From the NCBI GenBank assembly GCA_963422735.1, contig OY730476.1, positions 1,248,001 to 1,312,000 on the forward strand: a DNA stretch of 64,000 bases. The letters run 5' to 3'. Numbering within the stretch: the first letter of the stretch is position 1; every line of letters starts with the position of its first letter. Positions 1-21,690 of the stretch are shown here, piece by piece. A program made the translations under genes and the position numbers. This DNA comes from Candidatus Latescibacterota bacterium. Its GTDB lineage: Bacteria > Latescibacterota > UBA2968 > UBA8231. The notes under the pieces were generated by a model. It was not told the DNA's origin and did not search any database. It saw nothing but the letters and a program-made list of their open reading frames with translations.

Positions 1-421
1 TGAGCGAGCGCAGAGCCTTGTTTTCAAATATCAACAGCCCTTCCACTACGTGAGCAGCTTTGCCGGCCACGGGCGTAGGTAAGAGCGGTGGTGCGGTCGC
101 CGGACCTAGCCCCGCTCCGACGCTTGCAAGCCCTTCCAGCCCGGCTAGGCTTTCCAAGCGGTCGTTAAACCAAATCTCGACGCTGCCCTCGACGCGCCTC
201 AGCCCTTCCAAACCCGTCAGTGCAACTAAGCTGCTCCCGACGATCTGCAAGTCGCCGTCGATGATGTAAGCAGCGCCCCCTCTTTCTCCAAGAGCAGCGA
301 TATCGGCCAGCGACGCAATGACAATGCCCTCTTCCAAGACGACCGGTGCTACCAGCCCTTTGCCACAGCCCGCCAGCGCGACGAGCAACGGCGCGATCGC
401 CCGTTCAAAAATCCCGCGCAC
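1..421 (-). CDS. Receptor L-domain/leucine-rich repeat lipoprotein (partial, runs off window start)
   Basis: Not in the ORF track. Manual translation from GTG at 421 gives MRGIFERAIAPLLVALAGC (lipobox) ...IIDGDLQIVGSSLVALTGLEGLRRVEGSVEIWFNDRLESLAGLEGLASVG..., i.e. L-domain-type repeats. It overlaps the stop of the upstream gene. Confidence 0.75.
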   Translation of the reverse strand, partial: MRGIFERAIAPLLVALAGCGKGLVAPVVLEEGIVIASLADIAALGERGGAAYIIDGDLQIVGSSLVALTGLEGLRRVEGSVEIWFNDRLESLAGLEGLASVGAGLGPATAPPLLPTPVAGKAAHVVEGLLIFENKALRSL

Positions 422-1232
422 ACCGAAACCCAATATCTATATCGGTCAACAGAGGATGATAGGCTTCCCGATTCGCCGCGGGCAGGGACTCCTTCTCAAA
501 CCACCACGACCCACCCCGCAACACCCCGAATTTGCCGCGCAGCGGACCCGGCGGATTGTCCCGTGGACTCTCTGCATAGTAGGTGTCCCCGTACCAATCG
601 GATACCCACTCCCACACGTTCCCCGCCAAGTCGCGTGCCCCGTACGGCGACGCGCCGGCAGGACGGCTACCCACCGGCTCGGTCGCTCCGGCGATAAAGC
701 GAAAGTTGGCCTCGTCGCCTACCAGCACGTATCCCCAGGGATACGTGCGCCCATCGGTGCCGCGCGCGGCCTTCTCCCACTCGGCCTCGGTCGGCAGCCG
801 CAGGCCAGCCCACGCGCAATAGTCGAGTGCGTTTTGGCGGTTCGCGCAATTGATGGGATGGGTGTCGTCTATGGCTTTGTCCCAGTTGCAGTTAGGAGCG
901 TAGGCCGGCTCTTTGCAGGCATCGTCCTCCACGCAGCGCCGGTACCGTCCTACGGTGACTTCAAACTGGTCGATGTAGTAAGCGGAAAGAAAAACTTGGT
1001 GCGGCGGCTGCTCGTCCGGGTCGCCTGCGTCCCAACCCATCACAAAGAGACCTTCGGGCACGAGGACCATGGCGTGATTGGCTTTGTTGACCTCGGTGAC
1101 CTCGGTGACCTCAGTGGCCGGAGCCTCGCCGGGCGGAGCGGGCGCAACTGCGCGATTTTCGCTTACTTGCCCCGGGTCCTTTTGGCCGCAACCAAGTGCC
1201 CACAGGGCCATGCACACCAGTGCGCGGCTCAC
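405..1232 (-). CDS. FGE-sulfatase (SUMF1-fold) domain lipoprotein
   Basis: Lipobox ALGC; motifs F.MG, P.H.V, EVT, RLPTEAEWEKAARG, YPWG, GNVWEW, RGGSW, GFRC. It lacks the catalytic Cys pair of true FGE after RGGS. Confidence 0.9.
   Translation of the reverse strand: MSRALVCMALWALGCGQKDPGQVSENRAVAPAPPGEAPATEVTEVTEVNKANHAMVLVPEGLFVMGWDAGDPDEQPPHQVFLSAYYIDQFEVTVGRYRRCVEDDACKEPAYAPNCNWDKAIDDTHPINCANRQNALDYCAWAGLRLPTEAEWEKAARGTDGRTYPWGYVLVGDEANFRFIAGATEPVGSRPAGASPYGARDLAGNVWEWVSDWYGDTYYAESPRDNPPGPLRGKFGVLRGGSWWFEKESLPAANREAYHPLLTDIDIGFRCARDF
1088..1114. repeat. 9-bp tandem repeat x3 (tgacctcgg) encoding TEV repeats in a linker
   Basis: tgacctcgg tgacctcgg tgacctcag. Confidence 0.8.
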
Positions 1233-1244
1233 CGTGTGGCCCCC

Positions 1245-3236: not shown

Positions 3237-3239
3237 AAA

Positions 3240-4946
3240 TCACTCCCCTCGTTTGCGCTCGTCGTCCAAATACCGCAGGTGCTCTTCGTACACGTCTATC
3301 TGCTCGGCGTATTTTTCGTGTAACTCCCGCAGATAGCCATTGAAGTACTCCCGCTCGATGCGCTCCCGCACGTCCCGCACCACCGCATTCCGCACCTGCT
3401 TTAGCTCTAGGCCTTGATAAATCTCTGGATATCGTTCGATAACCCGGAAGATAGAATAGCCTCCCCTCGTTTGGATCGGCCCTTGGAACTGGTGCAACTC
3501 GGCGTTCATCACCGCGTTCATCCAAGCCTCCCCCAAAAAAGGGGCCTGTGACTGGGAGACGTACAGGAGGCCATCTTCGGCGTCGCGGCGCAGGCTGTGG
3601 GCGCGGGCCATCTCCGACCACTCGGCACCCGCCTCAATCCGGGCCGCGATTTGGCGTGCCTCGCTTGGGGTCTCGAGCAAAATTTCCTCTAATTGCGCGT
3701 GGGGAGGGCTGCGGAAGCGTTGCTTGTGCTCCTCGTAGAAGGCTCGTAGATCGTCCTCGGTCGGCGCGGGAGCCTCTGCCAAAATTTGCTCGCGCAGTTT
3801 TATCAGCGTCAGGTTGCCCAGCGCCAAGACATGAGACCGCGCGAAAGCCTCGGTTTTATCGAGGCCCTTGCGCCGGGCATCGTGGGCCATGATGCGGGTG
3901 GGGAAATGGCTCTCAGATAGTTTTTCGTTGACCGCGTCGGCTGTGGCTTCCGGCCACAATCGGCCCGATGGCTGCACGGCCTCTAAGACCTCTGCTGCAT
4001 CCATCTGCAAGCCCTCGAAAGCATAGACTGGATGCTGGCGCTGGGCCTGGTCCAAATCTGCATAACGGACCGCCCCCTGTAAGACGCCTACTACTATATC
4101 CATGCCCTCGGCGTCAAAAACCGTGTCCAGATCCCATTTGAGGTGCCGCAGGTACGATTCGCGCAGTTGCTTTTGCTGCTCGTCGCCGAGTGCCTCGCGG
4201 ATCCCGTCTTCAACCTCGACCAATGCAGCGCGGCGACGCTGTGCCACTTTGGCAATGACGAATCCTCCGTGCAAGGGGAGTGGCTCAGTAACGCCGCCCA
4301 CGGGCAGGGCGAAGACCGCTTGCACTAGGTCGCGGGGGCTGTCAAAGGGCGAATAGGCCAGCCGCCGGATTTCGCCGGTGTGTATGCCGTAATAGGGGTC
4401 GGCGGCGAATTGACGACCTGCTTCTGCAAAGTCCTTGCCTTGTGCCAAAAGCGCTTGTACCTGACGCGCCTGTTCCCGATTGGGCACAAAAATCTCCATA
4501 GTAACGACTTTTTCTCCCCACCCCGGCCGCGCGTAGGCTTTTTCGATGTCGTCCTCGGTCACCACGACCTTGGCCGCGACGTTGCGCCGCAACATTGCGT
4601 CAGCGAGGGCCTTGGTTTCGCGCTTGGCGAGTTCGGCTAAAACCTCTTCGTCGCGCTGCAAACCCCGCTCGTTGGCCTCCAAAAGCAACACCTCGCGGTC
4701 AATCAGCGTCTGCAAGTTGTCCCGGTGCTGCAAGCGCATGGCGGCCGTTTTGAGATTGGCCTCAAAAGTGTGCAGATCGGCCGCGGTAATCTCGACCGCG
4801 CCGACCTTGGCCAGCAAGGCGTCGGCCGGCCGATCATCGCCACAGCTAATGCAGGCCCCGACTAGCAGCCCGGCCAACAGCGATTTGTGTATAAAAAGAG
4901 GAGCTAGACGGAAGGTCCAGCTCCTCGCAATGAGATATCCTGCCAT
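3240..4946 (-). CDS. SurA/PrsA-like parvulin peptidyl-prolyl isomerase lipoprotein with two rotamase domains
   Basis: Lipobox CISC; LAKVGAVEIT and LIDREVLLLEA SurA-N motifs; two parvulin-like domains (GKDFAEAGRQF..., GAEWSEMARAHS...GPIQTRGGYSIFRV). Start uncertain (4946 or 4985). Confidence 0.85.
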   Translation of the reverse strand: MAGYLIARSWTFRLAPLFIHKSLLAGLLVGACISCGDDRPADALLAKVGAVEITAADLHTFEANLKTAAMRLQHRDNLQTLIDREVLLLEANERGLQRDEEVLAELAKRETKALADAMLRRNVAAKVVVTEDDIEKAYARPGWGEKVVTMEIFVPNREQARQVQALLAQGKDFAEAGRQFAADPYYGIHTGEIRRLAYSPFDSPRDLVQAVFALPVGGVTEPLPLHGGFVIAKVAQRRRAALVEVEDGIREALGDEQQKQLRESYLRHLKWDLDTVFDAEGMDIVVGVLQGAVRYADLDQAQRQHPVYAFEGLQMDAAEVLEAVQPSGRLWPEATADAVNEKLSESHFPTRIMAHDARRKGLDKTEAFARSHVLALGNLTLIKLREQILAEAPAPTEDDLRAFYEEHKQRFRSPPHAQLEEILLETPSEARQIAARIEAGAEWSEMARAHSLRRDAEDGLLYVSQSQAPFLGEAWMNAVMNAELHQFQGPIQTRGGYSIFRVIERYPEIYQGLELKQVRNAVVRDVRERIEREYFNGYLRELHEKYAEQIDVYEEHLRYLDDERKRGE

Positions 4947-4981
4947 ACGTATTATCCAGATGCAGAAGCAGCGCCGGGAAC

Positions 4982-5734
4982 TCAACCCGCTCCGTCCGCT
5001 CTGGCCCTTTCCCTCGTTCCTTGGTCCACCGCAAAGCGGAACTCAATGTCAATGGTCTCTTCCGGATTGCCGCTGGCGTCAAACGAAAGCACAAATTCGC
5101 GGAATGTGAGCAGCAACTCGTCGTTTTCCGGTAGCAACGGGTCGAAGACCAACATGCCTTTTTGGCTGCTATCGCGGAAGATGGGGCGATGGCGGTGAAA
5201 GACCGTCTTGTAGATAATGCCCATGCGCTCCAAGTTGATTTCGCGCTCGTTGCCCGAAGTGCCCAGCTCCATTTTGTAGTACTTGGTGAAGCTGTTGCCC
5301 CCCAACACGACGGCCCCCTCGCGCCCGGGATCGTAGTAGCGATAGGTCTCGCCGCCCGATTCCATGGTCGCCTTGGCCGGATCGAATTCGATCTTAGCAT
5401 AGGTCTTGTTTATGACCTCGACTTCAAAAACGGTAAACTGCGGAGGGCTGTAGCCCCTTTCGGGATCGATGTCGCCCCGGGTGTAGGGGTTGACGTGGCG
5501 ACCGTCGTACAAGGGCGGGAAGCGCTTGTTGAGCTCGGGATCGCTCAGGTGCCGCACCTTGATCAAAAGCCCCTCTTTGCTAAAGACCATCGAGTTGTCG
5601 TCTGGGTCAATAGTGTAATCGCCGCGGCCCTCTGGCAAAACGGGCATCACGTGCAGGTCGTACACGAGTTGGGGCGGCACCAGCCCCCCGCAGCTCCAGA
5701 CCAGCCCAAGCAGCGCCATGTACCTTGCTGTCAT
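4982..5734 (-). CDS. Hypothetical lipoprotein, paralog of 16771..17538
   Basis: Lipobox VWSC; shares Y.IDP.D.S.V, TVFEV.VIN.T, E.DP and GNP.E motifs with the paralog. Confidence 0.8.
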   Translation of the reverse strand: MTARYMALLGLVWSCGGLVPPQLVYDLHVMPVLPEGRGDYTIDPDDNSMVFSKEGLLIKVRHLSDPELNKRFPPLYDGRHVNPYTRGDIDPERGYSPPQFTVFEVEVINKTYAKIEFDPAKATMESGGETYRYYDPGREGAVVLGGNSFTKYYKMELGTSGNEREINLERMGIIYKTVFHRHRPIFRDSSQKGMLVFDPLLPENDELLLTFREFVLSFDASGNPEETIDIEFRFAVDQGTRERARADGAG

Positions 5735-5765: not shown

Positions 5766-6185
5766 TCAATTGGTTGGTTCCTCGGTTTCAATGTCGATCT
5801 GTTCTACGCCCGCCATGGTGGCCGCTTCCATCGCGTCGATGATGTGGCCGTGCGCAGCATCGGCGTCTGCGGTGATAATCAGCGTCGATGAGCCGCTGCG
5901 GACCTTCTCGCGCTCTAGCCAGCTCGCTAGCTGCCCCATGGCTACTAGCTGCCCATTGATCTCGATCTGGCCCTCGCTCGAGATGCGCAGATTCAGCTTC
6001 TTCTCTGCCTTGAGCTGGTCGTAGTGGACCGAATCGGGCAGCTCGATCTTGAGCTGAGTAGCCTTGACGAAGACCGTGGTGGTCATAAAGAAAATCAGTA
6101 GCAGGAACACCGCGTCTATCATCGGCGTCAGGTTCAGTTCAAATTCGCCGGCTTTTTCGGCCAGCGACTGTCTCCGTTTAGCCAT
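5766..6185 (-). CDS. exbD: Biopolymer transport protein ExbD/TolR (copy 2)
   Basis: LNLTPMIDAVFLLLIFFM TM motif with the conserved Asp; C-terminal ADADA.HG.IIDAM. Confidence 0.93.
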   Translation of the reverse strand: MAKRRQSLAEKAGEFELNLTPMIDAVFLLLIFFMTTTVFVKATQLKIELPDSVHYDQLKAEKKLNLRISSEGQIEINGQLVAMGQLASWLEREKVRSGSSTLIITADADAAHGHIIDAMEAATMAGVEQIDIETEEPTN

Positions 6186-6190
6186 GCCGC

Positions 6191-6610
6191 TTATCCTTCT
6201 CCGCTCTTGGCGAAAGCGATGGCCTCAATGCCCTCGCCGCGGGCGATGTCCATCACCTGCACCACATAGAAGTGAGGCACGGAACGCGCGGACTCCAAGA
6301 TCACGTTCTTGGTGTTATCGGCTGCTATGACTTGGCGAATTTTTTCCGCCAATCTCGCCTTATCCGTGACCTCGCCGTTGACTTGGATCGTCTGATCTGG
6401 GTCAATCACGATGTTCATGTCCTTGGTCGCTCTCGACTCGCCTTCGCCGCCCGGCAGATCTACGCTCAGACCCTTGGGGTTGACGAAAGTGGTCGCCACC
6501 ATAAAGAAAACCAACAGCAGGAACATGCAGTTGATAAGCGGGGTCAGATCTGGATTCTCTGTGGTCTTGAAGGCACTTTTGCCGAATCCGCTCTTTCGTC
6601 TCTGCTGCAT
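6191..6610 (-). CDS. exbD: Biopolymer transport protein ExbD/TolR (copy 1; TM Asp replaced by Asn)
   Basis: DLTPLINCMFLLLVFFMVATTF, VDLP, VVQVMDIAR. Confidence 0.9.
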   Translation of the reverse strand: MQQRRKSGFGKSAFKTTENPDLTPLINCMFLLLVFFMVATTFVNPKGLSVDLPGGEGESRATKDMNIVIDPDQTIQVNGEVTDKARLAEKIRQVIAADNTKNVILESARSVPHFYVVQVMDIARGEGIEAIAFAKSGEG

Positions 6611-6628: not shown

Positions 6629-7303
6629 CTAGCGGCCCTCCTGCTGGCCAGCTTGAAAGCGCACCAGCAGGGTATTGGCGAAGGCGTGGCAATACAGTTC
6701 CACGCTCTTGAAGACCTTTTCCGCACGACCGGAGAGATAGCGATGGAAGACGATGGTCGGAATAGCGACGATGAGACCACTGGCCGTAGTAATCAGGGCC
6801 TCGGAGATGCCGCTGGCCACGGCCGCCGGATCGCCGGCCCCGGCGCGGGCAATAGCGTCAAAGGCGTTGATCATACCCATGATCGTGCCCAACAGCCCCA
6901 TCAGCGGGGAAAGGACGCCAATGGTTCCGAGCGCGTTGAGCAGACGGCCCAGATACATCTCGCCGGCCTCCTCAGTGACCAAGATCAACTCCTGGCGCAT
7001 GTCCTCTAGGTCCGTGCGATTTTCCAGCACTAAGGTGTCGTAGCGCTTCACCAAGGCGGCGAAGATGAAGTTGAGCACACCGCTGCCCTGCCGGAATAGC
7101 TCGATGGCCCCACCTTCGCCTTCGCTTTTGAGCATGTCTTCTGCCTCGTTGAGCTGCTGTTCGGCCTCCTGTTCGCCCGGGACCATCAGCAGGCGCCACA
7201 GCCGTTCTATGATGATGGCTAGGGCGATCAACAAGCAAAGCAACATGGGCCACATCATCGGCCCGCCTTTGAAAAACTGGTCAACTAAAAAATTCTGCTC
7301 CAT
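6629..7303 (-). CDS. exbB: MotA/TolQ/ExbB proton channel family protein
   Basis: GGPMMWP; LGTIGVLSPLMGLLGTIMGMINAF; GISEALITTASGLIVAIP. Start placed at ATG 7303 after a GGGAGG RBS. Confidence 0.93.
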   Translation of the reverse strand: MEQNFLVDQFFKGGPMMWPMLLCLLIALAIIIERLWRLLMVPGEQEAEQQLNEAEDMLKSEGEGGAIELFRQGSGVLNFIFAALVKRYDTLVLENRTDLEDMRQELILVTEEAGEMYLGRLLNALGTIGVLSPLMGLLGTIMGMINAFDAIARAGAGDPAAVASGISEALITTASGLIVAIPTIVFHRYLSGRAEKVFKSVELYCHAFANTLLVRFQAGQQEGR

Positions 7304-7350: not shown

Positions 7351-10300
7351 CTAGAGCCGGTTTTCCACAATCCACGCCCGGTGCAGCTTGGCAAAACTGA
7401 CCACGTCCGCGTTTTCCGCCTTGTCCCCGCCCTTTTCTTCCACTACCTGATAGTTTTCCACGGCTTGCGACCACTGGCGCATGATTTCATAGACCAGCCC
7501 CAAGTTGCAGTACGCGGCCAATTCGGTATAAGTACCGGGGTACTCGCGGATAATCTCCTGTAAGGCTGGCACGGCCTGGTCGTAGTCTTTGGCCTCAAAC
7601 AGCTTCATGGCCTCGTTATAGCTAAAGCTGGCCTGGATCTCGCTTAGCTCTTCCACTAGGGCTGTGGCCCTCGACGCCTCCTCGGAGTCGGGATATAGCT
7701 TGAGTACTCGCTTGTAGGCCGCCATGGCCTCGTCATAAAACTGGATATTGTAGTAGTAGTCGCCGATGGTAAACTGCGCTTTGGGGGCGAATTCGCTTTG
7801 GGGGTAGTTGGCAACTAGGTTTTGCATCGCGCCTACTGCTTGCTCCATCTCCTCTTGTTCGACAAAGGACCAAGCCAACGCGTATTGCGCCGATCCGCCG
7901 TATCGGCCTTGGGGATATTTGGCTAAGAGCGCTTGATATGCAGTCGCGGCCTCGGCAAAGGCCTGCTCGTTGTAGTAGTTTTCGCCAATGAGGAAAAGCG
8001 CCTCTTCCTCGTATTGGGACTGGAGATAGCGCTCGACGAGCACAGCAAAAGCGGCCGCAGCCTCCTTGAACTGGGTCAGGGCCTGGAGACTGTGAGCCAG
8101 ATAGTACTGGCCGTGAATGCGGTTGGCATTGCGCGGATATTTTTTGACAAAAGCCCTGAAGCTCTCAGCGGCTGTGGCGTAGTCGCCGTAGCTGATTTCG
8201 GCAAAGCCCTTGGAGAAGGCCAAGTTGCCACTCTCGCCCGAATTCGGATAGCGTTTGAGACCTTGGGCAAAGATGCGGGCGGCTTCCTCGTATTTCTTCT
8301 GCTGTAGCAGCGCGTTGCCAATGATGGAATAGGCGCGTTCTTTGCGGTAGTACCCAGCTTGAGCGTCGTCTGCAAACTGCATGTCGAGGAGCCGGCGAGC
8401 GAATTTCTCGGCTTGAACGAAGTCCTGCTGATCGTAGTACAGCTCAGTCAGCAGCATGCTAAAGGTGGCCTGTTCTTGGGGGTCAGCCGACGCGGCAATG
8501 AGCTCTTGGTAGTATCTGGCCGCCTCTTCTTGCCGCCCCAAGCGGATCATGCCAGCCCCCAGCGTGCGGAAGGCACTGTCCTTTATCTGAGGCGCAGGAT
8601 CGCTTTCGAGCAGGGCCTTCATATCCTCCAGCGATGCCTCATAGCTTATGCGGGCCTGGGCCGTGTCGCCGACGGCGTCTTGCTGTTTGGCGACCTCGTA
8701 GTAAGCACCGCCGCGGGCCAGCAGCGAATTTTGCAGGATGTGCGTGGGCGGACTCAGCGCAATGGCCTGACCCCAAGAGTCGATCGCATCCGCGAAATTG
8801 TCCTCGGCAAAATGCACCCGAGCCATGGTGTAGTGCATCTGGCCTCTTAGAGTGTCGTCGTCGGCTCGATCCAAGGCGCGAGATAGGGCCTTGTGCGCCT
8901 TTTTGTACTCTTGTTTGCCCATGTACAGCTCGGCCAACTCGACCTGCATGGTCGGCCACTTGTCCCAACCCTCTTCTACCGTCTCATAGGCGGCGATGGC
9001 GCTCTCTGGATCCTGTAGGTGCTTGTAGGTGAGCCCCAACTCCATCCGCGTCGTATTGCGCAGTTCCGAATCCGAGAAGCGGTCGAGGAAGGACGTATAG
9101 ATAGCTTCGGCCCGTTTGAGATCGGATGCGGCATAGGCTATGCGGGCCAACTGCAAAAGGCCGTTAGGGGCCGCCGGATGGGCCGGATACTCATCGACTA
9201 ACCGCTGGTACAGCGGCTGCGCCGCTTCGTTTTTCTCGAGGAGTTGGTTGGCAAAACCGGCGTTAAAAAGCACATCCGCTATCAGGGAATTATCCTCGTG
9301 CTGGCTCAAGAGCTGATCGTAGCCCTTGAGCGCCTCGGCGATTTCCGCGTCCGCTCTAGCCGGATCCTCGCTGCGGATCTGCCGCCCGTATTCTTGGTGG
9401 CACTGGGCGATGCGAAAAAGAACCTTGTAGCGGTTAAAGCCGATGCGCTGGGCCACATCGCCGTAGGCATTGATATATATCTCGTATTCTTGTGCCGACT
9501 TAAGGTATTCGTCTTGGTCGAAAAGCATCAGGGCGACCGTTAGCTGCGTGCGGGCTTGAAAGAGCTTGTCCTCGACCTTTTCGATGGCATCCTTGTACGC
9601 GGCGATGGCCGCGGTCGTGCCCTGCTCCTTCTGCACCAACTCGGCGGTGCGGATATAGCTGTTTTGCACCAAGACCGGCTCAGCCGCGTATTCAGCCGGG
9701 AGTACGGCATAGGCGGCGAGGGCCTTTTCGACCTTGCCGTTGCGTGCGTAAATATCGCCCTTTTTCAGGTGGGCCTTGGCGACTAGTTCGCGCGCTGTCT
9801 CCTTGACCAAGCCTTTGAGCTTGAGGGTGGTCATCTCGATGATTTCTTCCTCGGTCATCTGCGCGAAGTCGTAGCGGGCGATGAGGCGGTCGAGAAAATT
9901 CAGCGCATCTTCGTACTGCCCGAGCTTGTCGTAGCTCTCGGCGATCTGGAAGAGCGAGCGGTCGGCATTAGAGCCTCTGGGGGCCAAGATCAACACCTGC
10001 TTGAAGCCGGCGATGGCCTCCTCGTAGCGTTCCAATTCAAAATAGGACCACGCCCGGTCGTAGTGAACGGACGCCTCGTAGAGGCTGTGGGGGAAGCTGT
10101 GTAGCAGCGCGTCCCCCTCCTCAATGACCTGATCGTAATCCTTGAGCTGGTAACTCGTCTGGATCATCTGGTACTGGGCCATCACTCGGGTGCGGTCATC
10201 AACGTGCTCGTCCACGGCTAGGCTGCGGAAGTGGTCGCGGCTCTTATTGAGGTCTTGCAGTGCCTCCTCGTAGCGAGCGTCGGCCTCGGCCTCCTTTTTC

Positions 10301-13559: not shown

Positions 13560-13610
13560 GGCAGCTATCCTCATTCAGTATAGAGATTTCGTCTTCAGTC
13601 GCATTCCAAC

Positions 13611-14471
13611 TCAGCGCTGGCGATAACCAACGCTGAACCGATGTACACCTCCATAGCCGGACAGGTGCAGCGGATAGGAATAAGCATAATCGAAATGCCA
13701 TTGCTTATAGTTGTGGCCAAGGCCCACGTTGAGCTCTCTGTCATCAAAACCCGAACCAACCGCCGCCCCTCCCATGCGGAACCGGGCTCGGTTGAGGCTC
13801 ACTGTCCGCGTCTCGAACCCCACCCTGAACTCAGTTTGTCCATCGCGGCGCTCAATGTCGAACAGGACTTCCCGCCCCGCCAAGTTGAGCAAGGCCGCTG
13901 CGACCAAGGCCGGCTTTTCTTCGCCTGCGGCTTGGCCACCTGCTGCGATATTGGCACCGTTTAAGCCTTTGGCGACCAAACCCAAGCGCAGGTACGCTCG
14001 CGGGTGTATGAAGCCCACTTCCCAAGTCGCCCCTACATCCAAGTGCCAAGCCCGGTGCGACAGATCGCCAGCCTTCCAAGCGCTGGTGCGCAAGCCGCCG
14101 CCTAAGGCAAAGCGCTCGTGCAACGGCCGCCCATAGCCCAAGGCAATCACTTCTTCGCGCCAGCCATCGGCACCGAGAAACGATAGGCCCATTTGCAAAC
14201 CGCCGCCTCGCAAGGGGCCGGTTACCGACAAACCGCTTAGGGCTGGACTTTGGTCCAACCCGGGATAGAGCAACGCGTGCGTCGTTCCAGCCTGCCATTT
14301 TTGCTGCTGGGCGTTGCCGGCCGGATTGTACCAAACGGCCTCAGCCGTTTGAATGCTGGCGGCGAAAGCCCCGCCCAATGCCGTGCTCTGGGCCCCCCGT
14401 GCCGCAAATTCAAAAGCGGCTCCGACCGGGGGCACAAAAGCCAGCAATAGGACGCTAGTACGCCACCACAA
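13611..14471 (-). CDS. PorV/PorQ/PorP-like small outer-membrane beta-barrel
   Basis: N-terminal GAQSTALGGAF...AVWYNPAG and C-terminal FDYAYSYP...GGVHRFSVGY, as in PorV/FadL-like T9SS barrels. Confidence 0.7.
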   Translation of the reverse strand: MWWRTSVLLLAFVPPVGAAFEFAARGAQSTALGGAFAASIQTAEAVWYNPAGNAQQQKWQAGTTHALLYPGLDQSPALSGLSVTGPLRGGGLQMGLSFLGADGWREEVIALGYGRPLHERFALGGGLRTSAWKAGDLSHRAWHLDVGATWEVGFIHPRAYLRLGLVAKGLNGANIAAGGQAAGEEKPALVAAALLNLAGREVLFDIERRDGQTEFRVGFETRTVSLNRARFRMGGAAVGSGFDDRELNVGLGHNYKQWHFDYAYSYPLHLSGYGGVHRFSVGYRQR

Positions 14472-16113
14472 AAGTGCCTCGGCGCGCCTTGCCGCTTTCT
14501 TCTATTCTAACCTCGTACAGATAGAGCCCCGGCTCGACAACGCGACCGCTCCCATCGCGACCGTCCCACTCAAACTGATAGGTCCGGGCACTTCCGGTCT
14601 GCGCCAACTGGCGAATCGGCCGACCGGTCAAGTTGTAAATTTTTAGCACGACTTCCCGGCCCTCTTCGATGTTGCCGACGACGAAGACAAAGCGCGCATA
14701 CTCGTCCGCAAACGGAGAGAACGGGCGCGGCTGCACCTGCACCTCGCCCAAAAGCTGCAACGGCGTTCCCCCAGCCAGTACCGTCCAAGTGGCACCCGGC
14801 ATTTCCCGCCCCTGCTGCCAGTTGACGTAGCCGTCTCTGTCGCCTTGGGCCTTGTTGCCGGCTTCGAAGCGCATGGCGGTCTTGTCGCGCACAAAGAGCG
14901 CCTGTCCCTCAATTTCGACGGTCGCCATCGCGTTGATTTGCTCGCTAGGTACAAGCTCTATCAGCATCCCCTCCCGATCCGGCGTCGGACCCCAAGTATA
15001 GCCTTCTGTGGACACGAGTTCTCGACCATCGACGCGCACGGCTGTTACGCTGAGCAAGGGGCCTTGTACGCGCAAGAGATCGACCCCGTAGTCATCGACG
15101 CCAGCCGCGATTTCCACTCGGTAGATCAACGTTGCTTCCTCGCCCTTGCGCAGCGAATCGGATGCGACCACCTCCGCCATGAGCTGTTGGGCGACCAAGA
15201 CTGGATCGTAGTCAATGGCGATGCGCTCGAGCGCCGGGCTGACAAAGGGGGCCGAGTTCGTCAGGCGGGCCCGGTACGCCAACCGCGCGACCGGCTCGTC
15301 CCCGCTGTAGAAAAATTCCCCGTCCGTGTGTGCCGCCAAGCTTCCCCAAGGCACTTCTGCTCCCTCTGCGGCGGTTCCACGCACCTGCAATTCAATGCCC
15401 GTGCGCTCCGTGCGCTCTACTTGCCAGCGTATCTGCCCCACGTTGACCGGGGTAGGCGGGGCGAAGCTATCCTCTATGAAGCCTTCGCTAACGTAGCCCG
15501 CGCCGAACACCTCGATTTCCCCGATGGCGACCCAGTTGCTGCGGTCTTGGCGGATCAGCGTCAGCCGCACGAAGCGACCCTCTCGCGGGATCGCCTCACC
15601 GCGCTCGTCGGTTATGGCCCAAGTAGAATCTGCACTCGTATCTACGTTGAGGACGAAATTGTCCGGCTGTTCCGCCAACAGGTGCCAGACTTGCGGCGCT
15701 GCTTGGGTGGCTGTTTCAAGCCTGTACCCACGCACGAAATACTCGGGCTGGCTCAGCGCTGTCTCGCCGGCTAGCACCCGCACCCGCTTGATCGCCCGGT
15801 CCAGCCCGAGATCGACGGTAAACTGCTTGTCGAACACGTGATTGGTCCCCGAAATCCACTCGCTCCGCACGAGATCAATCGCGCCGTCGGTTAGGGGCAC
15901 AGGCTTGTCGAAATCGTCTATCACCGATCGTCCTAAGGCCACGTTTACATCCTCGTCCAACTGTGCCAGAATGACGAGGCTATCTGGATGCACCCGTACT
16001 CCTCGGGTCGTTCCCAAGGCAAATGTTTCGACCGCGTCCACTACCCAAGTCTTTAACTCAGCACGGCACGGACTGAATTCAAGCAAGAGCAAAAGTGCGC
16101 CCAGCCTCAGCAC
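14455..16113 (-). CDS. Secreted protein with discoidin-like domain and C-terminal FlgD-Ig/T9SS-CTD-like domain
   Basis: Signal peptide; FTVDLG...GRFVRL...IGEIEVFG (F5/8-like); C-terminus PRPFSP...KIYNLTGRPIRQL...WDGRDGSGRVVEPGLYLY...VVAY. Confidence 0.78.
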   Translation of the reverse strand: MLRLGALLLLLEFSPCRAELKTWVVDAVETFALGTTRGVRVHPDSLVILAQLDEDVNVALGRSVIDDFDKPVPLTDGAIDLVRSEWISGTNHVFDKQFTVDLGLDRAIKRVRVLAGETALSQPEYFVRGYRLETATQAAPQVWHLLAEQPDNFVLNVDTSADSTWAITDERGEAIPREGRFVRLTLIRQDRSNWVAIGEIEVFGAGYVSEGFIEDSFAPPTPVNVGQIRWQVERTERTGIELQVRGTAAEGAEVPWGSLAAHTDGEFFYSGDEPVARLAYRARLTNSAPFVSPALERIAIDYDPVLVAQQLMAEVVASDSLRKGEEATLIYRVEIAAGVDDYGVDLLRVQGPLLSVTAVRVDGRELVSTEGYTWGPTPDREGMLIELVPSEQINAMATVEIEGQALFVRDKTAMRFEAGNKAQGDRDGYVNWQQGREMPGATWTVLAGGTPLQLLGEVQVQPRPFSPFADEYARFVFVVGNIEEGREVVLKIYNLTGRPIRQLAQTGSARTYQFEWDGRDGSGRVVEPGLYLYEVRIEESGKARRGTFVVAY

Positions 16114-16114: not shown

Positions 16115-16771
16115 TCAGAATAGCAGTTTCTGCGTCAGGCTGGTCACCACGGCAATGGCGAGAGCCTCCTCCAACTCCCTAGAGTTGAAGGTCATGACAA
16201 TGCCGGCATCCACTGGGCTTTTCTTGCTCACTTTGCCGGTTTTGAGATCCTTAACTGACACCTCGACCTGCACTCGTTGCGTTTGCGGGGAGAATACTTT
16301 GCGCACTCGCTGACTGGAAAGCAGAGCCGTACCGCTAATTTCCAAGTCGGCCTCGTCCGAGTCCGCTGACACCACCGCGAAGGGATTGTTCACTTGCCGC
16401 ACGCTGTCTTCGTCTAGCACCTCGACCCGATCCGTCTGCGTGAAAATCCGCACCTTGTCCCTGCGGAGTTCGCGCAACAAGGCCCCAGACAAATCCTCAA
16501 TGCGCGAAGGCCGAGTAATCTGCACCAAGCGATTTCCAGAGGTGGCGAGGGCATTAGTAACGTACTGGGTTCCTTGGCCACTAGCCGAATTGGCGGTCCT
16601 CGGATCGACCACGTTAGCCTTGCTCTCGACCGGGAATTCCTTGACGTATATTTTGACTGGCATCGACGGCGGGTTGGGCAAACTAGTGTCCTTGAGTGCC
16701 TCGTATCTCAAAGTACAGGCCATCGCGCCGCCTAGTAGCATCATCCCGAGGTATTTGACCATCTTTTTCAT
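16115..16771 (-). CDS. Hypothetical lipoprotein
   Basis: MKK...GAMAC lipobox; tightly coupled to neighbouring genes. Confidence 0.75.
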   Translation of the reverse strand: MKKMVKYLGMMLLGGAMACTLRYEALKDTSLPNPPSMPVKIYVKEFPVESKANVVDPRTANSASGQGTQYVTNALATSGNRLVQITRPSRIEDLSGALLRELRRDKVRIFTQTDRVEVLDEDSVRQVNNPFAVVSADSDEADLEISGTALLSSQRVRKVFSPQTQRVQVEVSVKDLKTGKVSKKSPVDAGIVMTFNSRELEEALAIAVVTSLTQKLLF

Positions 16772-17538
16772 TACTTATTCTCCACCCAACGCACTCCGTG
16801 ATCGACATTGAAGTCGAATTTCAAGTCGGTAAACTCCACCGGATTGCCGTATCCTACTTGAAACCGATCAAAGGCCAGAATGAAGTCGTTTACTTCGAGG
16901 GTGAATGACTTAGTCTCTACGGGCAGCGGTGGAAAGGTCAGCTTGCCGGCGTATCTGGAGCCTTTGCGTACGGGCTTTTCCCGGTGGTACTCGCTCTTCT
17001 CCCAAATCGGGTTGCGGTCCAAGCTGGCGTGATAGCGCACATTGCCTTCTTGCCCCCCCCACTTCAAATAGGAATAGTCGAAGAACTCGTCTTTGTCGTA
17101 CCAATTTCCCGTCCCTTGGCGGCAGAGCAATCGGCTGCCGTCGTCCAAGCGGATAATGGCCTGCGTGGGATCCAACTCCACCCGCTCTCGAGTGCGGTTG
17201 ATCACCGTCACTTCAAAAACGGTCCATAAGGGCGGCGTATAGTCCAAGCCGGGAATTTCGACTCCCGTGAGCGTATAGGGCGTGAAGCGGGGGTCGTATT
17301 CGGCGTCGAGCATGGCATCGTCGTAGAACTTGACCTTGACTTGCACCCCTTGCTCGCTCCACACGACCGAGCTATCGATCGGATCGATGTAATAGGTCTC
17401 CCCATCGGGCAGTTCCGGCTCCAACTCGATAACGTACTCCCGCTGCACATGCGATTCGAGGGATTTGAGAGTAGCGCACCCCCCGGCGGCCAACGCCAAG
17501 CACAGGAGGACGTGAATGTATTTTGCGATTGGTCTCAT
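16771..17538 (-). CDS. Hypothetical lipoprotein, paralog of 4982..5734
   Basis: Lipobox AGGC; conserved motifs shared with the paralog. Confidence 0.8.
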   Translation of the reverse strand: MRPIAKYIHVLLCLALAAGGCATLKSLESHVQREYVIELEPELPDGETYYIDPIDSSVVWSEQGVQVKVKFYDDAMLDAEYDPRFTPYTLTGVEIPGLDYTPPLWTVFEVTVINRTRERVELDPTQAIIRLDDGSRLLCRQGTGNWYDKDEFFDYSYLKWGGQEGNVRYHASLDRNPIWEKSEYHREKPVRKGSRYAGKLTFPPLPVETKSFTLEVNDFILAFDRFQVGYGNPVEFTDLKFDFNVDHGVRWVENK

Positions 17539-17543
17539 AGGCC

Positions 17544-20501
17544 TTAGAAGGGGGATATCAGCTCTACGAAGAGAATGCCTTGCTTGGAGTCGGGCCGCCC
17601 TGCATGGCTAAAGTCCCGCCGCGTACGCTGGTAGCCGAAGAATATCGAATTGTCGCGGATGCCAAAGTAGTCTGCGGTGATGCTCAGCATGGCCAGATAA
17701 TCGGTCTGGCTGTACGTCCCATCACCAAAGGCGCGATCCCAGTGCTTAAACGGCAGCAAGGGCAGCCCCTGCACGCCTAGCTGAAAGCTGGTCTTGGGCG
17801 TGAGCTTGTACTGCCCCATTACAATGGGGATGAAGTCGCTGTACGATTTCCGCGGCGTATCTTCGCTGTCAACCTGCTCAACGATCGTCCGATGCTTTAA
17901 CTTAGGCGTGACGCTGAAGGCACCCCAGCTATGGGTATAGTCGATCTTGTTGACAACGGAAAAACGCGAGCGCACATCTTGGGGCTGCAACAGCCCGCTG
18001 CCGTCTTCAAGCTCAATTTCGGCTTGGTTGTTGCGCTGCCACAGGAAGCCATTTTCAATGTTGAAGCCGCGCAAGCCCTGATAGGTGCTGTCAAAAAAGA
18101 GGAGATGCACAAAGCTGTCGCGCATCAACAGCTCGTCCGGCGTTGCCGGCCGCCAAAAGCCCGCGCGCTCGGGCGGGCCGTCCGGCTCGTTAAACCAGTT
18201 GATGACTTCGATATCGTCGATGGGCACTTGGTACACGTAGGTGTGATCCGGGGTGTCGTCTTTGACCTGCTTGGCGTCGAAGTTGATCCTCAATGCACCA
18301 ACGCCGCGCTTTTCCAACTCATAGGCGTAGCGGAAGTAAAGCCCTTCGGACTTGCCCGGGCCGGCGATCTGACGGTTGTCGTAGCGACCTATGCTGACGA
18401 ATTTACCCAAGCGCCCCAAGCGGTCGTAGCGGAGGAAGATGTGCTGGCCCTTTTGGTCGCGTGGATAGGGGTAGTCCGGCTTATCGTCGTTCTCGCGGAA
18501 GTCGGGTACGTTGTTGTTGTTGAAGTCGATGCCATAGACAAATTCGGGCGGCTCTGAATCATAGGTCAGAAAAGCCTCTTCCCAGTCGACGATGAAATTC
18601 TCGTTGCGGTCCATATCCGGGATGTTATCGACGTTCTCGTCGAGACCCGGATACACTTGGGCACTGGGAAAGCCCGGATACAGCGTACGCGGCTCGGCGG
18701 TAGCCGTATCGTTAGTGTGTTCGTCGGGGAAGCCGTCGTGATCGTCGTTGTCCTCGTGGAGGGGGAACTCCTCGGTGACCGTAGAGATTCTCTCGCCGGG
18801 AGCAGGCTGCCCATCGTAGTGGAAGGCCATGCCGCCTCGGTAGCTATCGTACCCGCCGCCGTAGTCAGGCTCCATGCGGTATATCTCGCCGCCCAGTGCT
18901 AGGCCGCCGGCTATATCCTTGACGCCCTTGACCCACCACGCAAAGGCGCGCTCGCTGCTGCGCTCGCCCTCGTTATCGCCGACCGGGAACATAAAATTCT
19001 GCAGGTTGTGCGCCACTTCGCCGCTGATATCTAGCCCTACCAAATCGACCTGATAGTTGACCGAGGCCAAACTCTGCCCGGTGGGAATGCCGTAATCAAA
19101 GGAGACCATCCGCCGATTTGCACCGCTGCGGTCGCTGCCATCGGCGCGGACAACGGTGTAGTAGATCTCCTCGTCTTCGTCTGTGTACCACTTGAACGGA
19201 CGCCGGATGGCCCGCTCGTTACCTTTAGTGATGGGGGCTGGCCAAGCTGCTTCGGTGATCGTCGCGTCGCCCCGACGACTGATATTGAAGAAGTCGTGGG
19301 TCTGGCTGACGCCGACCCGGTAGTCGCCGGCCACATCGGCGACAAAGCGCACCGAGCGCACCGTCGCGTCCGGCGGGAGGACGAAGGTGTACACCACCGG
19401 CACCTTGCCCTCGGCCTCGCGCCCGCCACCGGCGCGGACGGCACCGCCCTCGGGCGGCCCGGCTTCTAGCAGCGGGTCGTAGTCTGGGTCGTCGTCGAGG
19501 CTGGTCAGGCGCACCGGCTCTGTGTTGCGCTCGCCCTCGATGACGATGTCCACGCCATAAACAATGGCATTGGCCCGGGCGTCGTCGGGCGAGTCGTCGG
19601 CCACGAAGACGCGGATGGTCTTGGGGCCGAGCATCTCATAGGGCAAATCGCCGCGCCAAGCGCTGGTGCGCGACAGGGCCGGCGAGGCCATAATCTGGTT
19701 GATTAGCGTCCCGCCAACGCTGGCGAAGCGACCTACTTCGTGCTGATAGTGGCCGCCAAAGAGCAGCACTGGTGAGTTGTCCCAAGCGTCGTCGCCTTCT
19801 TGGCCAAACGCCCATTTGGAGAATAGCTGGGCACCGGAGTGATCGCCGCCGCGCGAGTAGAGCAGAGTCGCCCGGTCGCGCTCCTTGTAGTTGATGTCCA
19901 TGCGCAGCACGTTCAGCTTACTGCTGGTCAGCGTGAGCGGCGTGAAAATGGTGCGCACATCCGATCTTGTGGTCAGATGGCCCACAGTAGCGGTCCAGTG
20001 CAAATCCTTGTGAGTATAGTGGCCGACCCGGAACGACCGATACTTGTGGTCGATATAGCTATACGCACTAAAATCGTTGCCACTGCGCGACTCTTCTATC
20101 GTCAGGAGCCGCTGATAGCCGCCGCCCATGTAGTTGCCCATCCGGTCCCAACCCACGTTGCGGGTACTTGGCGAGCGGCCCGACGGGGCGGCCCAAGCAA
20201 CCGTCTCGCGGTAGTAAGCAATGTACTTTTCGTCGGCGTAGTTGAGATAGGGGACGTTGACTGCGGCGTTGAGGAAAGCCCTCTCCAGCCCTCGGTCATA
20301 GCGGTCTTGGGGACCGCGCAGAAAGGGGGGGCGCTTTTTCCACGGGGGATCTTTGGGCGTACCGGGAGTAGGGTCGTAATAGGGCAGCGGACCGGCGGAT
20401 TCGGGGTGGCGCTGCGCCTCCGCCGGCGCGGACAGGGCAACGCAAACTACTGATAATATCCCCACCCAGCACTTGGACACGACACTAATAAAAAACAGCA
20501 T
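17544..20501 (-). CDS. Uncharacterised large outer-membrane protein B, paralog of 10641..13559
   Basis: Signal peptide (AEA-Q); C-terminal FVELISPF; shared motifs PYLNY, SPVL.FGGH, DDSPD, FDYGIPTGQ, PGLDEN, YGIDFNNN, PDYPYPRD, KQVKDD. Confidence 0.75.
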   Translation of the reverse strand: MLFFISVVSKCWVGILSVVCVALSAPAEAQRHPESAGPLPYYDPTPGTPKDPPWKKRPPFLRGPQDRYDRGLERAFLNAAVNVPYLNYADEKYIAYYRETVAWAAPSGRSPSTRNVGWDRMGNYMGGGYQRLLTIEESRSGNDFSAYSYIDHKYRSFRVGHYTHKDLHWTATVGHLTTRSDVRTIFTPLTLTSSKLNVLRMDINYKERDRATLLYSRGGDHSGAQLFSKWAFGQEGDDAWDNSPVLLFGGHYQHEVGRFASVGGTLINQIMASPALSRTSAWRGDLPYEMLGPKTIRVFVADDSPDDARANAIVYGVDIVIEGERNTEPVRLTSLDDDPDYDPLLEAGPPEGGAVRAGGGREAEGKVPVVYTFVLPPDATVRSVRFVADVAGDYRVGVSQTHDFFNISRRGDATITEAAWPAPITKGNERAIRRPFKWYTDEDEEIYYTVVRADGSDRSGANRRMVSFDYGIPTGQSLASVNYQVDLVGLDISGEVAHNLQNFMFPVGDNEGERSSERAFAWWVKGVKDIAGGLALGGEIYRMEPDYGGGYDSYRGGMAFHYDGQPAPGERISTVTEEFPLHEDNDDHDGFPDEHTNDTATAEPRTLYPGFPSAQVYPGLDENVDNIPDMDRNENFIVDWEEAFLTYDSEPPEFVYGIDFNNNNVPDFRENDDKPDYPYPRDQKGQHIFLRYDRLGRLGKFVSIGRYDNRQIAGPGKSEGLYFRYAYELEKRGVGALRINFDAKQVKDDTPDHTYVYQVPIDDIEVINWFNEPDGPPERAGFWRPATPDELLMRDSFVHLLFFDSTYQGLRGFNIENGFLWQRNNQAEIELEDGSGLLQPQDVRSRFSVVNKIDYTHSWGAFSVTPKLKHRTIVEQVDSEDTPRKSYSDFIPIVMGQYKLTPKTSFQLGVQGLPLLPFKHWDRAFGDGTYSQTDYLAMLSITADYFGIRDNSIFFGYQRTRRDFSHAGRPDSKQGILFVELISPF

Positions 20502-20555
20502 GAAGACCCCTCGTGGCTCACCTTAGTATGAGCTAACTGAAAATCAACGGGCGAA

Positions 20556-20585: not shown

Positions 20586-20586
20586 G

Positions 20587-20624
20587 AAAAAAAACGGGAA
20601 GCAGGCGTCAAGACCGCTTCCCGT
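20587..20624 (-). terminator. Rho-independent terminator after the CBM9-like gene
   Basis: Stem acgggaagc (20594-20602) / gcttcccgt (20616-20624), followed on the minus strand by a U-tract (A-run 20587-20594). Confidence 0.75.
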
Positions 20625-20653
20625 CTTTGTAAAACCTATCCAAAGTGCATTGA

Positions 20654-21610
20654 CTACTGGACGAAGGTCTCCTTTACTCGGCCCCAAGAATCTTCTTCGA
20701 CCGCGGTCCCTGTCGGGCCAGCCGGCGTATCCACAAAGACCCAGTTGGCAAACTCGGACATGTTGCCGCCCGCCCATGCCACGCACTGAATCTGGCCGCC
20801 ATAACCATCTTCGCCGTCGGAATCAACCGCCAGCCAAGTAAAGCCCATCTCAGAGCCAGCTGTGGGGGCTTCAAAGAGGTTACCGTTGCGCAGGAAGGTA
20901 TCCCATGGCAGCATGCCTTCAATCACGTAGTCGGCGTCGCCAGCGTCGCCAAATTCGTCGCCAGCGTCGCGGAAGCCGTATTCAAACCCCTCAAGCGCGT
21001 CGGGGTCGTGGACATCCACGCGCTGATTATCCACGGTGGTGATTAAACAGACAGACAGCTCGTTCGAGCCAAAGGGCAGGGCCATGAAGTTGACCACGTT
21101 CAGATTGACGTAGCTAGCCGGGGCCGGGTCGCCGCACGCGCAATCCTCGTTGTTCAGGTCGAGGTAGAGAGACATGCTGTCGCGCTCCCACCAAGCCCGG
21201 GCCTCACCGCCGCCCTCGGTGTCGCGGACATTATCGCTAACCTCGGTGATGTAGTACAGGGCATCGTCGTCCCAAGCCTGCAAGATCACCGAAGAAAAAT
21301 CGGCGTCCGTGCGCCCCTCGCCGGCTACTTCGGTCTCGCCGTTTTCATTGAGCTGGTTGGTACTGACTTCGCTGGACTCCTGCTCAATACTGCGCCAACC
21401 ATACTCTTGACCATCGAGCTGAATCTGGCTCGGCGAGCAGGGAAATTCTAGCGCACCAGCCCACTCGTCGGCAACTGTTGCGCGGTCGCCGTCGAGCGTG
21501 GGGGCTTGGGTGAACTTGGGCAAGTCGAAGTAGCGCACTGGCGGCTGGGCACTGGCCAGCGTAGTAAAGCAAAGGGCCGCGATAGCGGCCAAAAGAGCCA
21601 ACTTCTTCAT
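20654..21610 (-). CDS. Secreted CBM9/DOMON-like sugar-binding protein with C-terminal TAVEEDSWGRVK tail
   Basis: Signal peptide (ASA-Q); PTLDGD...EW, AWDDDALY, D.MSLYLD, YVIEGMLPW and MGF....DSD motifs typical of CBM9_1-like domains; very acidic. Confidence 0.72.
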   Translation of the reverse strand: MKKLALLAAIAALCFTTLASAQPPVRYFDLPKFTQAPTLDGDRATVADEWAGALEFPCSPSQIQLDGQEYGWRSIEQESSEVSTNQLNENGETEVAGEGRTDADFSSVILQAWDDDALYYITEVSDNVRDTEGGGEARAWWERDSMSLYLDLNNEDCACGDPAPASYVNLNVVNFMALPFGSNELSVCLITTVDNQRVDVHDPDALEGFEYGFRDAGDEFGDAGDADYVIEGMLPWDTFLRNGNLFEAPTAGSEMGFTWLAVDSDGEDGYGGQIQCVAWAGGNMSEFANWVFVDTPAGPTGTAVEEDSWGRVKETFVQ

Positions 21611-21661
21611 TATTGCATCTCCTTAGCTGTAAGAGAAGTGGACGAAAAATTTGAACGGTTC

Positions 21662-21690
21662 ATAATATACCCCTGCCAAAGGGTTGTCAA
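21662..21690 (-). promoter_or_regulatory. Near-consensus sigma70 promoter (TTGACA-N17-TATTAT)
   Basis: Minus strand TTGACA ACCCTTTGGCAGGGGTA TATTAT in the AT-rich divergent intergenic region, about 50 nt upstream of ATG 21610. Confidence 0.7.

Follow-up and report, generated by a model that had tools for sequence, protein, structure and literature searches.

What does a long run of envelope genes do when it encodes an ExbB-type motor together with two large outer-membrane proteins of no annotated family? This question is raised by a 64,000-nucleotide stretch of DNA (the window) from a Candidatus Latescibacterota bacterium (assembly GCA_963422735.1, contig OY730476.1, positions 1,248,001 to 1,312,000). 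It belongs to one contig of 4.95 Mb, 95% complete, to which all genome-wide counts given here refer. Sixteen open reading frames (ORFs), all on the minus strand, run from position 21610 down to the window edge, mostly abutting or overlapping, with intergenic gaps of -29 to +47 nucleotides except for one of 152 nucleotides between genes 1 and 2 (Table 1). In the genome sequence the run stops after gene 16, where convergent genes come next. An earlier reading of the sequence alone (the original prediction) had proposed a single undescribed machine driven by the proton-motive force (PMF). The 16 co-oriented envelope genes are borne out, and so is a real, conserved and unannotated envelope system with a TolQ/ExbB-type motor, on domain matches, a lack of TonB_C domains and plugged receptors, and synteny across phyla. 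We read the cluster as one of three motor-bearing loci of a modular, TonB-independent uptake system that resembles polysaccharide utilization loci (PULs) and displays its binding proteins through the type IX secretion system (T9SS). We put the probability of this reading at about 0.45.

The two ~980-residue proteins, barrel B (gene 2) and barrel A (gene 7), are predicted to represent a hitherto unannotated family of outer-membrane beta-barrels that are large and have no plug. They are 985 and 977 residues long and 35% identical, and both have a signal peptide and end in Phe. Neither has a Pfam match at E<=0.1 or any NCBIfam match. Among 5.8 billion proteins searched, 122 relatives turned up, and all those with a name are called hypothetical. 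Against 1.84 billion representatives, the barrel profile matched 1192 clusters at E<=1e-3, of which 382 reached E<=1e-30. A precomputed SlpA_C tag sits on nine of 120 listed relatives; on rescanning, three of five relatives matched SlpA_C at 17 to 25 bits, under the cut-off of 35, and these matches are barrel likeness only. A PDB sequence search with the barrel profile found nothing, and the Atlas places the barrel in unnamed clusters only, the nearest named family (DUF6029, at 0.89) being a lead only. No paper describing the family was found in the literature searched here and below (subscription journals and supplements excluded); a 2015 paper on Latescibacteria, in the part available, assumed unspecific porins.

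An AlphaFold2 (AF2) model of barrel A, made from a 65-row alignment, has a pLDDT of 81.4 and a pTM of 0.80. Counted from the DSSP string only, it contains ~24 to 26 long strands, the first at residue 112, and the same string gives no globular plug before that strand. The ~80 N-terminal residues are conserved yet disordered (23 to 83), with N53 and G76 invariant, and a strand and helix region is inserted at 238 to 447. Residues 575 to 665 form a loop rich in invariant Asp and Asn (D575, N576, D577, D578, D580, D605, D609, D613 and others), which is kept across 65 relatives down to 25% identity and which we take to resemble calcium-binding repeats. The best Foldseek matches are SlpA, MtrB, LptD, SprA and TonB-dependent receptors, all with a TM-score of 0.33 or less. 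They appear to reflect a generic likeness to large barrels, and the model points to no close solved fold.

Three known identities were tried for these proteins and rejected. A TonB-dependent transporter, SusC included, does not fit a protein with no Plug domain (PF07715) and no globular N-domain in the model. Nor is there a match to its 22-strand barrel family, TonB_dep_Rec (PF00593), which does pick out 13 ORFs at other places of this genome. A fragment of SprA/Sov (TIGR04189, ~2100 to 2400 residues) is set aside on the lack of an NCBIfam match and on a separate SprA of 2140 residues at 2.39 Mb in the genome. Finally, genes 1 and 2 could have been a split DUF5916 protein (PF19313), and hhalign of the barrel profile against the genome's own DUF5916 protein gave a probability of 0.3%. 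On these non-matches, the AF2 fold and the separate SprA, the barrels are neither ordinary TonB-dependent receptors nor pieces of SprA, in line with the original prediction.

The two barrels had been called twins. Their likeness is real, but they are only two of 34 full-length paralogues. The barrel profile has 42 matches in the genome, these 34 and fragments, at ~24 places and often two or three in tandem, and the barrels outnumber the TonB receptors (34 against 13 ORFs). The idea of a single 16-gene machine is not borne out by these numbers. Each barrel place repeats a module of discoidin proteins with a T9SS C-terminal sorting domain (CTD) and one to three barrels, often with a CBM9-like protein, a lipoprotein, a parvulin lipoprotein and a permease like those of the oligopeptide transporter (OPT) family. 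At the 23 places other than the window, CTD proteins like gene 5 are found at all 23, usually directly upstream of the barrel; CBM9-like proteins of ~300 residues are found at 17, parvulin lipoproteins at 16, lipoproteins like gene 12 (lipA) at nine, DUF6785/6784 membrane proteins at seven and ExbB at one. The parvulin lipoprotein has 21 paralogous copies in the genome (tblastn). Since the window holds two of 34 paralogues, we take the locus to be one motor-bearing member of a modular, PUL-like family.

A family scan of 108 of the 121 neighbours at barrel loci (13 were left out by size) found tetratricopeptide repeat (TPR) proteins (14), FG-GAP (8), DUF6785 (6), ATP-binding cassette (ABC) permeases of the BPD_transp_1 family (6) and DUF4159 (4) as the commonest families. 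The pooled NCBIfam scan of the neighbours was dominated by TPR models and uninformative. One barrel locus has an oligopeptide-type ABC ATPase. ASPIC is found in six of the 108 neighbours. Directly after barrels, at L113:11344-13542 and L116:6943-8883, lie membrane proteins with an N-terminal PMT_2 part (ArnT/PMT-like glycosyltransferase) and C-terminal TPRs. A conserved pair, a protein of 179 to 199 residues with a weak DUF5683 match and a lipoprotein of 127 to 129 residues, recurs at L102:14474-15419 and L103:14344-15346, between barrels or the TPR gene and the DUF4159 gene.

The motor is encoded by genes 9 to 11. Gene 9 matches MotA_ExbB at 98.4 bits, and the two ExbD domains (PF02472) score 90.2 and 103.5 bits. 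The best NCBIfam names are TolQ (86.8 bits, cut-off 221) and TolR (55 to 61 bits, cut-off 127), and the proteins score far under the equivalog cut-offs of TolQ, TolR, ExbB and ExbD. Gene 10 has an Asn at the transmembrane (TM) position where the genome's seven other ExbD-like proteins, gene 11 included, have an Asp; the motor may hold one proton-competent and one silent ExbD-like subunit. Gene 8 matches many TPR families, is YfiO/BamD-like at residues 874 to 1034 and has a conserved N-terminus. By tblastn the genome contains four ExbB loci. One lies beside a TonB_C gene, and the other three, which are the window, L117 and L101/L102, each have a ~1090-residue TPR protein and a lipA-like gene.

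Pfam gives no TonB_C, Plug or TonB_dep_Rec domain for any of the 16 proteins, and no TolA, TolB or Pal domain was found among them. A scan of 10 upstream ORFs (21794-37058) found no TonB_C, and in the genome as a whole the four TonB_C places and the 13 TonB-receptor ORFs are all beyond the window. The cluster had been described as having no TonB and no TonB-dependent transporter; this holds for the domains, but a protein of TonB-like topology at 23131-24348 had been missed. It is named DUF4159 in the Atlas, a PDB sequence search with it found nothing, and in the literature searched DUF4159 appears only in a Pfam listing. We propose it as the candidate force transducer of the system, on the topology and gene order of its relatives.

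Relatives of this DUF4159 protein occur in 32 of 76 loci of other genomes (12 close and 64 distant loci, many cut by contig ends, so that all counts from this set are lower bounds), typically between the TPR or ExbD gene and lipA. In the present genome DUF4159 directly follows ExbD at L117 and lies between TPR and lipA at L102. An Ignavibacteriaceae locus, L078, has the order TPR, ExbB, ExbD, a DUF4159 protein and a lipA-DUF4159 fusion. The protein after ExbD has 438 residues, with a TM helix, a basic Pro-rich linker and DUF4159 at 97.9 bits. The next (L078:18738-20195) is a lipA-like lipoprotein fused to a C-terminal DUF4159 (27.4 bits, cut-off 25.9), and this fusion supports lipA as a partner lipoprotein. 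A GHL10 protein with a T9SS tail follows the fusion gene. TonB and TolA carry the helix pattern SxxxH; it is present in the TM helix of 15 of 35 DUF4159 relatives, and several more have a His.

The arrangement is conserved well beyond this genome. The order barrel-TPR-(ExbB-ExbD-ExbD)-(DUF4159)-lipoprotein recurs across phyla within the FCB (Fibrobacteres-Chlorobi-Bacteroidetes) group, in records of Latescibacterota, Handelsmanbacteria, Ignavibacteria-type, Kryptoniota and Zhuqueibacterota genomes. Among the 76 loci, a TPR gene directly follows the barrel in 46 (12/12 close, 34/64 distant), a lipA-like gene is present in 42 (12/12 and 30/64), ExbB in 22 (10/12 and 12/64) and a gene-5-like protein in 11/12 close and 35/64 distant loci. 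A survey of gene neighbourhoods, which the original prediction had suggested, thus finds the synteny kept across phyla and the homologs together. Within the phylum, 94 of 151 sampled genomes have barrels and 92 have lipA. The two tallies are identical in 13 of 14 families, with 63/63 in the family to which the window belongs and, in two further families, 0/30 and 0/19; they are descriptive, as kin genomes are not independent. The barrel and lipoprotein families are phyletically coupled.

Contigs from four RNA libraries (three studies, two labelled sponge metagenome) cover 29 to 30 of 30 operon bins. They are mostly 90 to 95% alike to the operon, and some bridge gene junctions. Library X17 leaves bin 3702-4368 without cover, and the preliminary shares in the RNA runs are small (0.08 to 0.10).

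The remaining lipoproteins and the permease are less readily placed. The three small lipoproteins match no Pfam or NCBIfam family. In the lipA/lipB family the lipobox Cys is invariant in 28 relatives. The lipA model (pLDDT 89.5) has YjhA (3cfu) as its best Foldseek match, an Ig-like match at E 6e-3, and because it is weak no function follows. Gene 4 is kept in 11/12 close and 2/64 distant loci. Gene 14 had been labelled OPT-like. The label comes from its relatives, of which 10 of 120 listed are named 'peptide transporter' by NCBI and four of 120 listed carry PF03169, and not from any Pfam match of its own. The gene 14 profile aligns with DUF6785/6784 paralogues at 83% probability (hhalign, E 8.6e-6). 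Neither a DUF6785 paralogue nor a 660-residue neighbour gave a significant BLASTP match to gene 14, and a PDB sequence search gave chance-level rows only. The DUF6785/6784 proteins, described in no paper that we found, appear from the profile alignment to be remote relatives of gene 14. Inner-membrane importers are a recurrent part of the barrel loci.

The cluster had alternatively been predicted to be a T9SS-like export apparatus of its own. The genome has the 2140-residue SprA and PorU, both above cut-off, and at least 50 further C-terminal matches to the PorU CTD region, gene 5 included; with SprA and PorU present, the cluster does not stand in for the T9SS translocon. Gene 5 matches FlgD_ig above the cut-off (30.6 bits, cut-off 27) and CHU_C below it (20.4 bits, cut-off 27). 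The CTD part of its former label is kept, while the discoidin part is under cut-off (E 0.0028). Among 61 gene-5-like proteins, CHU_C is found in 56 (E<=1e-3), FlgD_ig in 53 and F5/8 type C in 19, and no catalytic domain is among the nine families matched. Gene 5 is thus a predicted ordinary T9SS cargo. For gene 6, the PorV-like label has a match to NF033709 in its favour, though at 44.7 bits with a cut-off of 90; TIGR03519 gives 17.6 bits (E 0.002, cut-off 90.55).

Whether such genomes have SprA, PorK-N or GldLM had been put forward as a check. SprA was found. GldM (TIGR03517, PF12081) and GldL (TIGR03513) had no match in the genome, in searches without a valid positive control, and GldK reached at most 65 bits against a cut-off of 350, again without a positive control. 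GldM was found in 0/151 genomes of the phylum and 0/5 Ignavibacteria-type carriers, a lead only, as the search had no positive control. TIGR03517 and TIGR03513 matched no genome tried, and PF12081 gave only two control matches, both under the cut-off.

The uptake reading, to which we give the probability stated above, follows from a receptor-like expansion of barrels, surface binding proteins, recurrent inner-membrane importers and few shared PMF motors. In the proposed mechanism, the genome's ordinary T9SS would export the discoidin/CTD proteins (gene 5 and ~60 relatives), which would be held at the surface beside the barrels, and the PorV/PorP-like gene 6 might be what holds gene 5. Together with the CBM9-like protein they would capture a polymeric substrate, and the barrels would pass its fragments into the periplasm. 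A motor of one TolQ-like and two TolR-like kinds of subunit would energise this passage, linked by the TM-helix/Pro-rich-linker/DUF4159 protein at the place that TonB has in Ton systems. The giant TPR protein would be a periplasmic scaffold and lipA/lipB the partner lipoprotein. The SurA/PrsA-like lipoprotein and the OPT-like permease would then deliver the product to the cytoplasm, peptides or glycopeptides being the likeliest. The ~20 motor-less loci would share the three motors. Of the SusC/D-independent glycan or peptide uptake first suggested, uptake by a PUL-like system is what we favour, while the lone machine and the direction are unsupported. It is possible, though we hold it doubtful, that the whole constitutes a second TonB-independent energised outer-membrane system in FCB bacteria outside the classical Bacteroidota, made of plug-less barrels, T9SS-anchored binders, a TolQ/TolR-type motor, a DUF4159 transducer, a giant TPR scaffold and a partner lipoprotein, whose motor may also replace an undetected PorL/PorM.

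Several points weigh against this uptake reading. Transport direction follows from no result, and the uptake direction is a proposal. A PUL analogue would be expected to carry enzymes, so it counts against the reading that no glycoside hydrolase or peptidase is among the 25 commonest families of the 108 neighbours. Gene 14 has no Pfam match and hence no OPT (PF03169) match. With motors at only three loci, it is an assumption that barrels elsewhere are energised. In the DUF4159 copy of the window, the helix lacks a His or Ser motif, and its gene is transcribed divergently. The periplasmic placement of gene 8 is putative, and the protein may lie on the cytoplasmic side instead. Both the strand count and the term plug-less come from the secondary-structure string of a predicted model alone. 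The RNA libraries may hold DNA; their contigs are no proof of a single transcript, and their depth cannot rank genes. Lastly, it is a rule of T9SS that a type-B CTD cargo sits next to its outer-membrane partner (sprB-sprF), and the strict order of CTD protein and then barrel also fits such a cargo beside a partner of its own.

This last point leads to the main rival, surface display in place of uptake, which we consider unlikely overall. Here the barrels would serve as outer-membrane anchors or adaptors, each specific to its cargo, the adjoining type-B CTD protein, and in function each a giant counterpart of PorP/SprF; the parvulin lipoprotein would help barrel or cargo to fold, and the motor, TPR and DUF4159 proteins would energise attachment, release or movement. 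CTD proteins do adjoin the barrels at 23/23 other places, usually directly upstream, 56 of the 61 have the type-B sorting domain CHU_C, and in the window gene 5 and barrel A have the PorV/PorP-like barrel between them. The genome encodes SprA and PorU and gives at least 50 CTD matches, and the barrel loci are enriched in no catalytic families. On the other hand, the barrels have no PorP_SprF or PorV match and, at ~900 to 1000 residues, are far larger than members of those families. Anchoring leaves the recurrent permeases (gene 14, DUF6785/6784, ABC) unexplained, and there are loci, such as L073, with three tandem barrels and a single CTD-protein match.

The same motor could instead serve type IX secretion, with the TolQ/TolR-like proteins, the TPR protein and the DUF4159 protein replacing PorL/PorM as its energiser. 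SprA and PorU are present, GldM and GldL are unmatched in the genome with GldK at 65 bits or less, GldM is at 0/151 and 0/5, and the motor loci contain PorV-like genes and CTD cargo. We nevertheless think it quite improbable: a divergent PorL/PorM could have been missed by searches without a positive control, and 34 barrels and the permeases would be left unexplained. An Agl-Glt-like machine for surface motility or adhesion, moving along the envelope, is a still slighter prospect. Agl-Glt combines one TolQ-like with two TolR-like subunits and also has a giant TPR protein and outer-membrane barrels; in the window are the same kinds of subunit, a 1090-residue TPR protein, a TM-linker-globular protein and adhesin-like discoidin/CTD proteins. 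This likeness is one of composition only, GltE matches among the neighbours in NCBIfam being generic TPR matches, and ~24 loci with differing barrels and binders and with permeases would be unexpected for one motility machine.

Table 1. Features of the window, with coordinates counted from its first nucleotide
Feature	Position	Strand	Evidence or remark
Sigma-70-like promoter match TTGACA-17-TATTAT	21662..21690	-	11/12 positions, ~50 nucleotides upstream of gene 1
Gene 1: secreted CBM9/DOMON-like protein, 318 residues, signal peptide	20654..21610	-	CBM9_1 38.3 bits (cut-off 23.4)
Gene 2: predicted outer-membrane barrel B, 985 residues, signal peptide, C-terminal Phe	17544..20501	-	35% identical to barrel A
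Gene 3: lipoprotein B, 255 residues, lipA/lipB family	16771..17538	-	34% identical to lipA
Gene 4: lipoprotein, 218 residues	16115..16771	-	no Pfam/NCBIfam match
Gene 5: surface protein, 552 residues, weak discoidin-like N-terminal part and T9SS C-terminal sorting domain	14455..16113	-	
Gene 6: small barrel like PorV/PorQ/PorP, 286 residues	13611..14471	-	sub-threshold matches
Gene 7: predicted outer-membrane barrel A, 977 residues, signal peptide, C-terminal Phe	10641..13574	-	AF2 model
Gene 8: giant TPR protein, 1090 residues, short N-terminal hydrophobic anchor	7351..10623	-	many TPR families
Gene 9: ExbB/TolQ-like proton channel	6629..7303	-	MotA_ExbB (PF01618) 98.4 bits
Gene 10: ExbD/TolR-like, 139 residues, Asn in place of TM Asp	6191..6610	-	ExbD domain
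Gene 11: ExbD/TolR-like, 139 residues, TM Asp present	5766..6185	-	ExbD domain
Gene 12: lipoprotein A (lipA), 250 residues, Ig-like beta-sandwich	4982..5734	-	model pLDDT 89.5
Gene 13: SurA/PrsA-like lipoprotein, 581 residues, two parvulin domains	3240..4985	-	
Gene 14: polytopic inner-membrane permease, OPT-like, 663 residues	1245..3236	-	relatives' names
Gene 15: lipoprotein of formylglycine-generating enzyme (FGE)-sulfatase fold, 275 residues	405..1232	-	FGE-sulfatase 174 bits
Gene 16: lipoprotein, cut by window edge	1..433	-	262 residues in genome, ends 356 nucleotides beyond window
405-residue protein: N-terminal TM helix, basic Pro-rich linker, C-terminal DUF4159	23131..24348	+	DUF4159 E 1.3e-10

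The labels given to the CBM9-like, TPR, ExbB, two ExbD, parvulin and FGE proteins are backed by Pfam or NCBIfam domain matches. For gene 9 the short form of 224 residues was taken, as a 281-residue ORF would overlap gene 8. Gene 15 scores 77 bits only against GldK (cut-off 350), and no family was found for gene 16. The near-consensus promoter is present as predicted, as a consensus match only: it was scored against the sigma-70 consensus, which may not be that of the host phylum, and we do not take it as evidence. A scan counts six promoter-like sites in 20400-22000, compared with 1.1 +/- 1.2 in shuffles. Between the promoter region and the DUF4159 gene, a secreted protein of 342 residues without a family is encoded at 21794-22822 (+). 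Further on, at 25217-33375 on both strands, are FG-GAP/ASPIC-UnbV, HEAT-repeat and mid-size TPR proteins, and the same kinds recur near barrel loci, for example at L096:12630-15952.

Energised outer-membrane traffic is currently explained by a handful of systems, namely Ton, Tol, Lpt, T9SS and Agl-Glt. In this genome unannotated barrels outnumber TonB-dependent receptors, and a conserved gene order ties them to a TolQR-type motor with a non-TonB partner. If the barrels import nutrients, then Latescibacterota, Ignavibacteria-type and related lineages would have an equivalent of PULs that does not depend on SusC, and a function would follow for DUF4159, for DUF6785/6784 and for the 'orphan' motor-TPR-transducer clusters noted in 2025. 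If they anchor T9SS cargo instead, they would make up a new branch of type IX secretion.

Among known systems, the type-B cargo/PorP-SprF pairs of T9SS and the translocon of SprA, PorV, a peptidyl-prolyl isomerase and SprE (PDB 8gl8) share with the cluster CHU_C, a PorV/PorP-like barrel, a foldase and a TPR protein. Unlike that translocon, the present barrel has a TM-score of 0.23 to SprA in a genome with its own SprA, and the foldase is a parvulin lipoprotein. TonB-ExbB-ExbD and TolQRA-Pal have the same MotA_ExbB and ExbD domains, and the DUF4159 partner resembles TonB and TolA in its TM helix, Pro-rich linker, globular end and, in many relatives, SxxxH. In contrast to Ton and Tol-Pal, the cluster has no TonB_C, TolA, TolB or Pal, and the partner's C-terminal domain is DUF4159.

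Closer in layout are the non-TonB force transducers of PMC12204202, which have a TM helix, a Pro-rich linker and a globular C-domain and are encoded with TPR, tolQ-like and two tolR-like genes. In the available text, the C-domain is called a vWA fold (von Willebrand factor A), a SHLS/His motif is given for the helix, and PVC, Proteobacteria, Bacteroidetes and Rhodothermaeota are named as carriers; the barrel family, lipA and T9SS cargo find no mention in that text, supplements excluded. Topology, read from the sequences, and gene order are the same here, in L078 and in L117. In the FCB group, FSU_2396-2403 of Fibrobacter succinogenes (Sci Rep 2019, PMC6851124) comprises, in the part of the paper available, an OmpA, two TPR proteins, ExbB, two ExbD-type proteins and a TonB-family protein; its expression rises on cellulose, and import of cellodextrins through an unidentified barrel was proposed for it. 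Likened by composition, it shares TPR, ExbB and two ExbD with the window and differs in its TonB-family protein.

The favoured reading takes the SusC/SusD PULs (utilisomes) of Bacteroidota as its model. As in these, there are many paralogous loci per genome, each combining a large barrel with surface binders, a lipoprotein and an importer of the inner membrane; the energy for all of them would come from a small number of PMF motors used in common. Unlike SusC, the barrel found here lacks both Plug and TonB_dep_Rec. Its surface partners are not SusD-like lipoproteins but proteins with T9SS sorting domains. There is no enrichment in enzymes, and a parvulin lipoprotein and an OPT-like permease belong to the loci.

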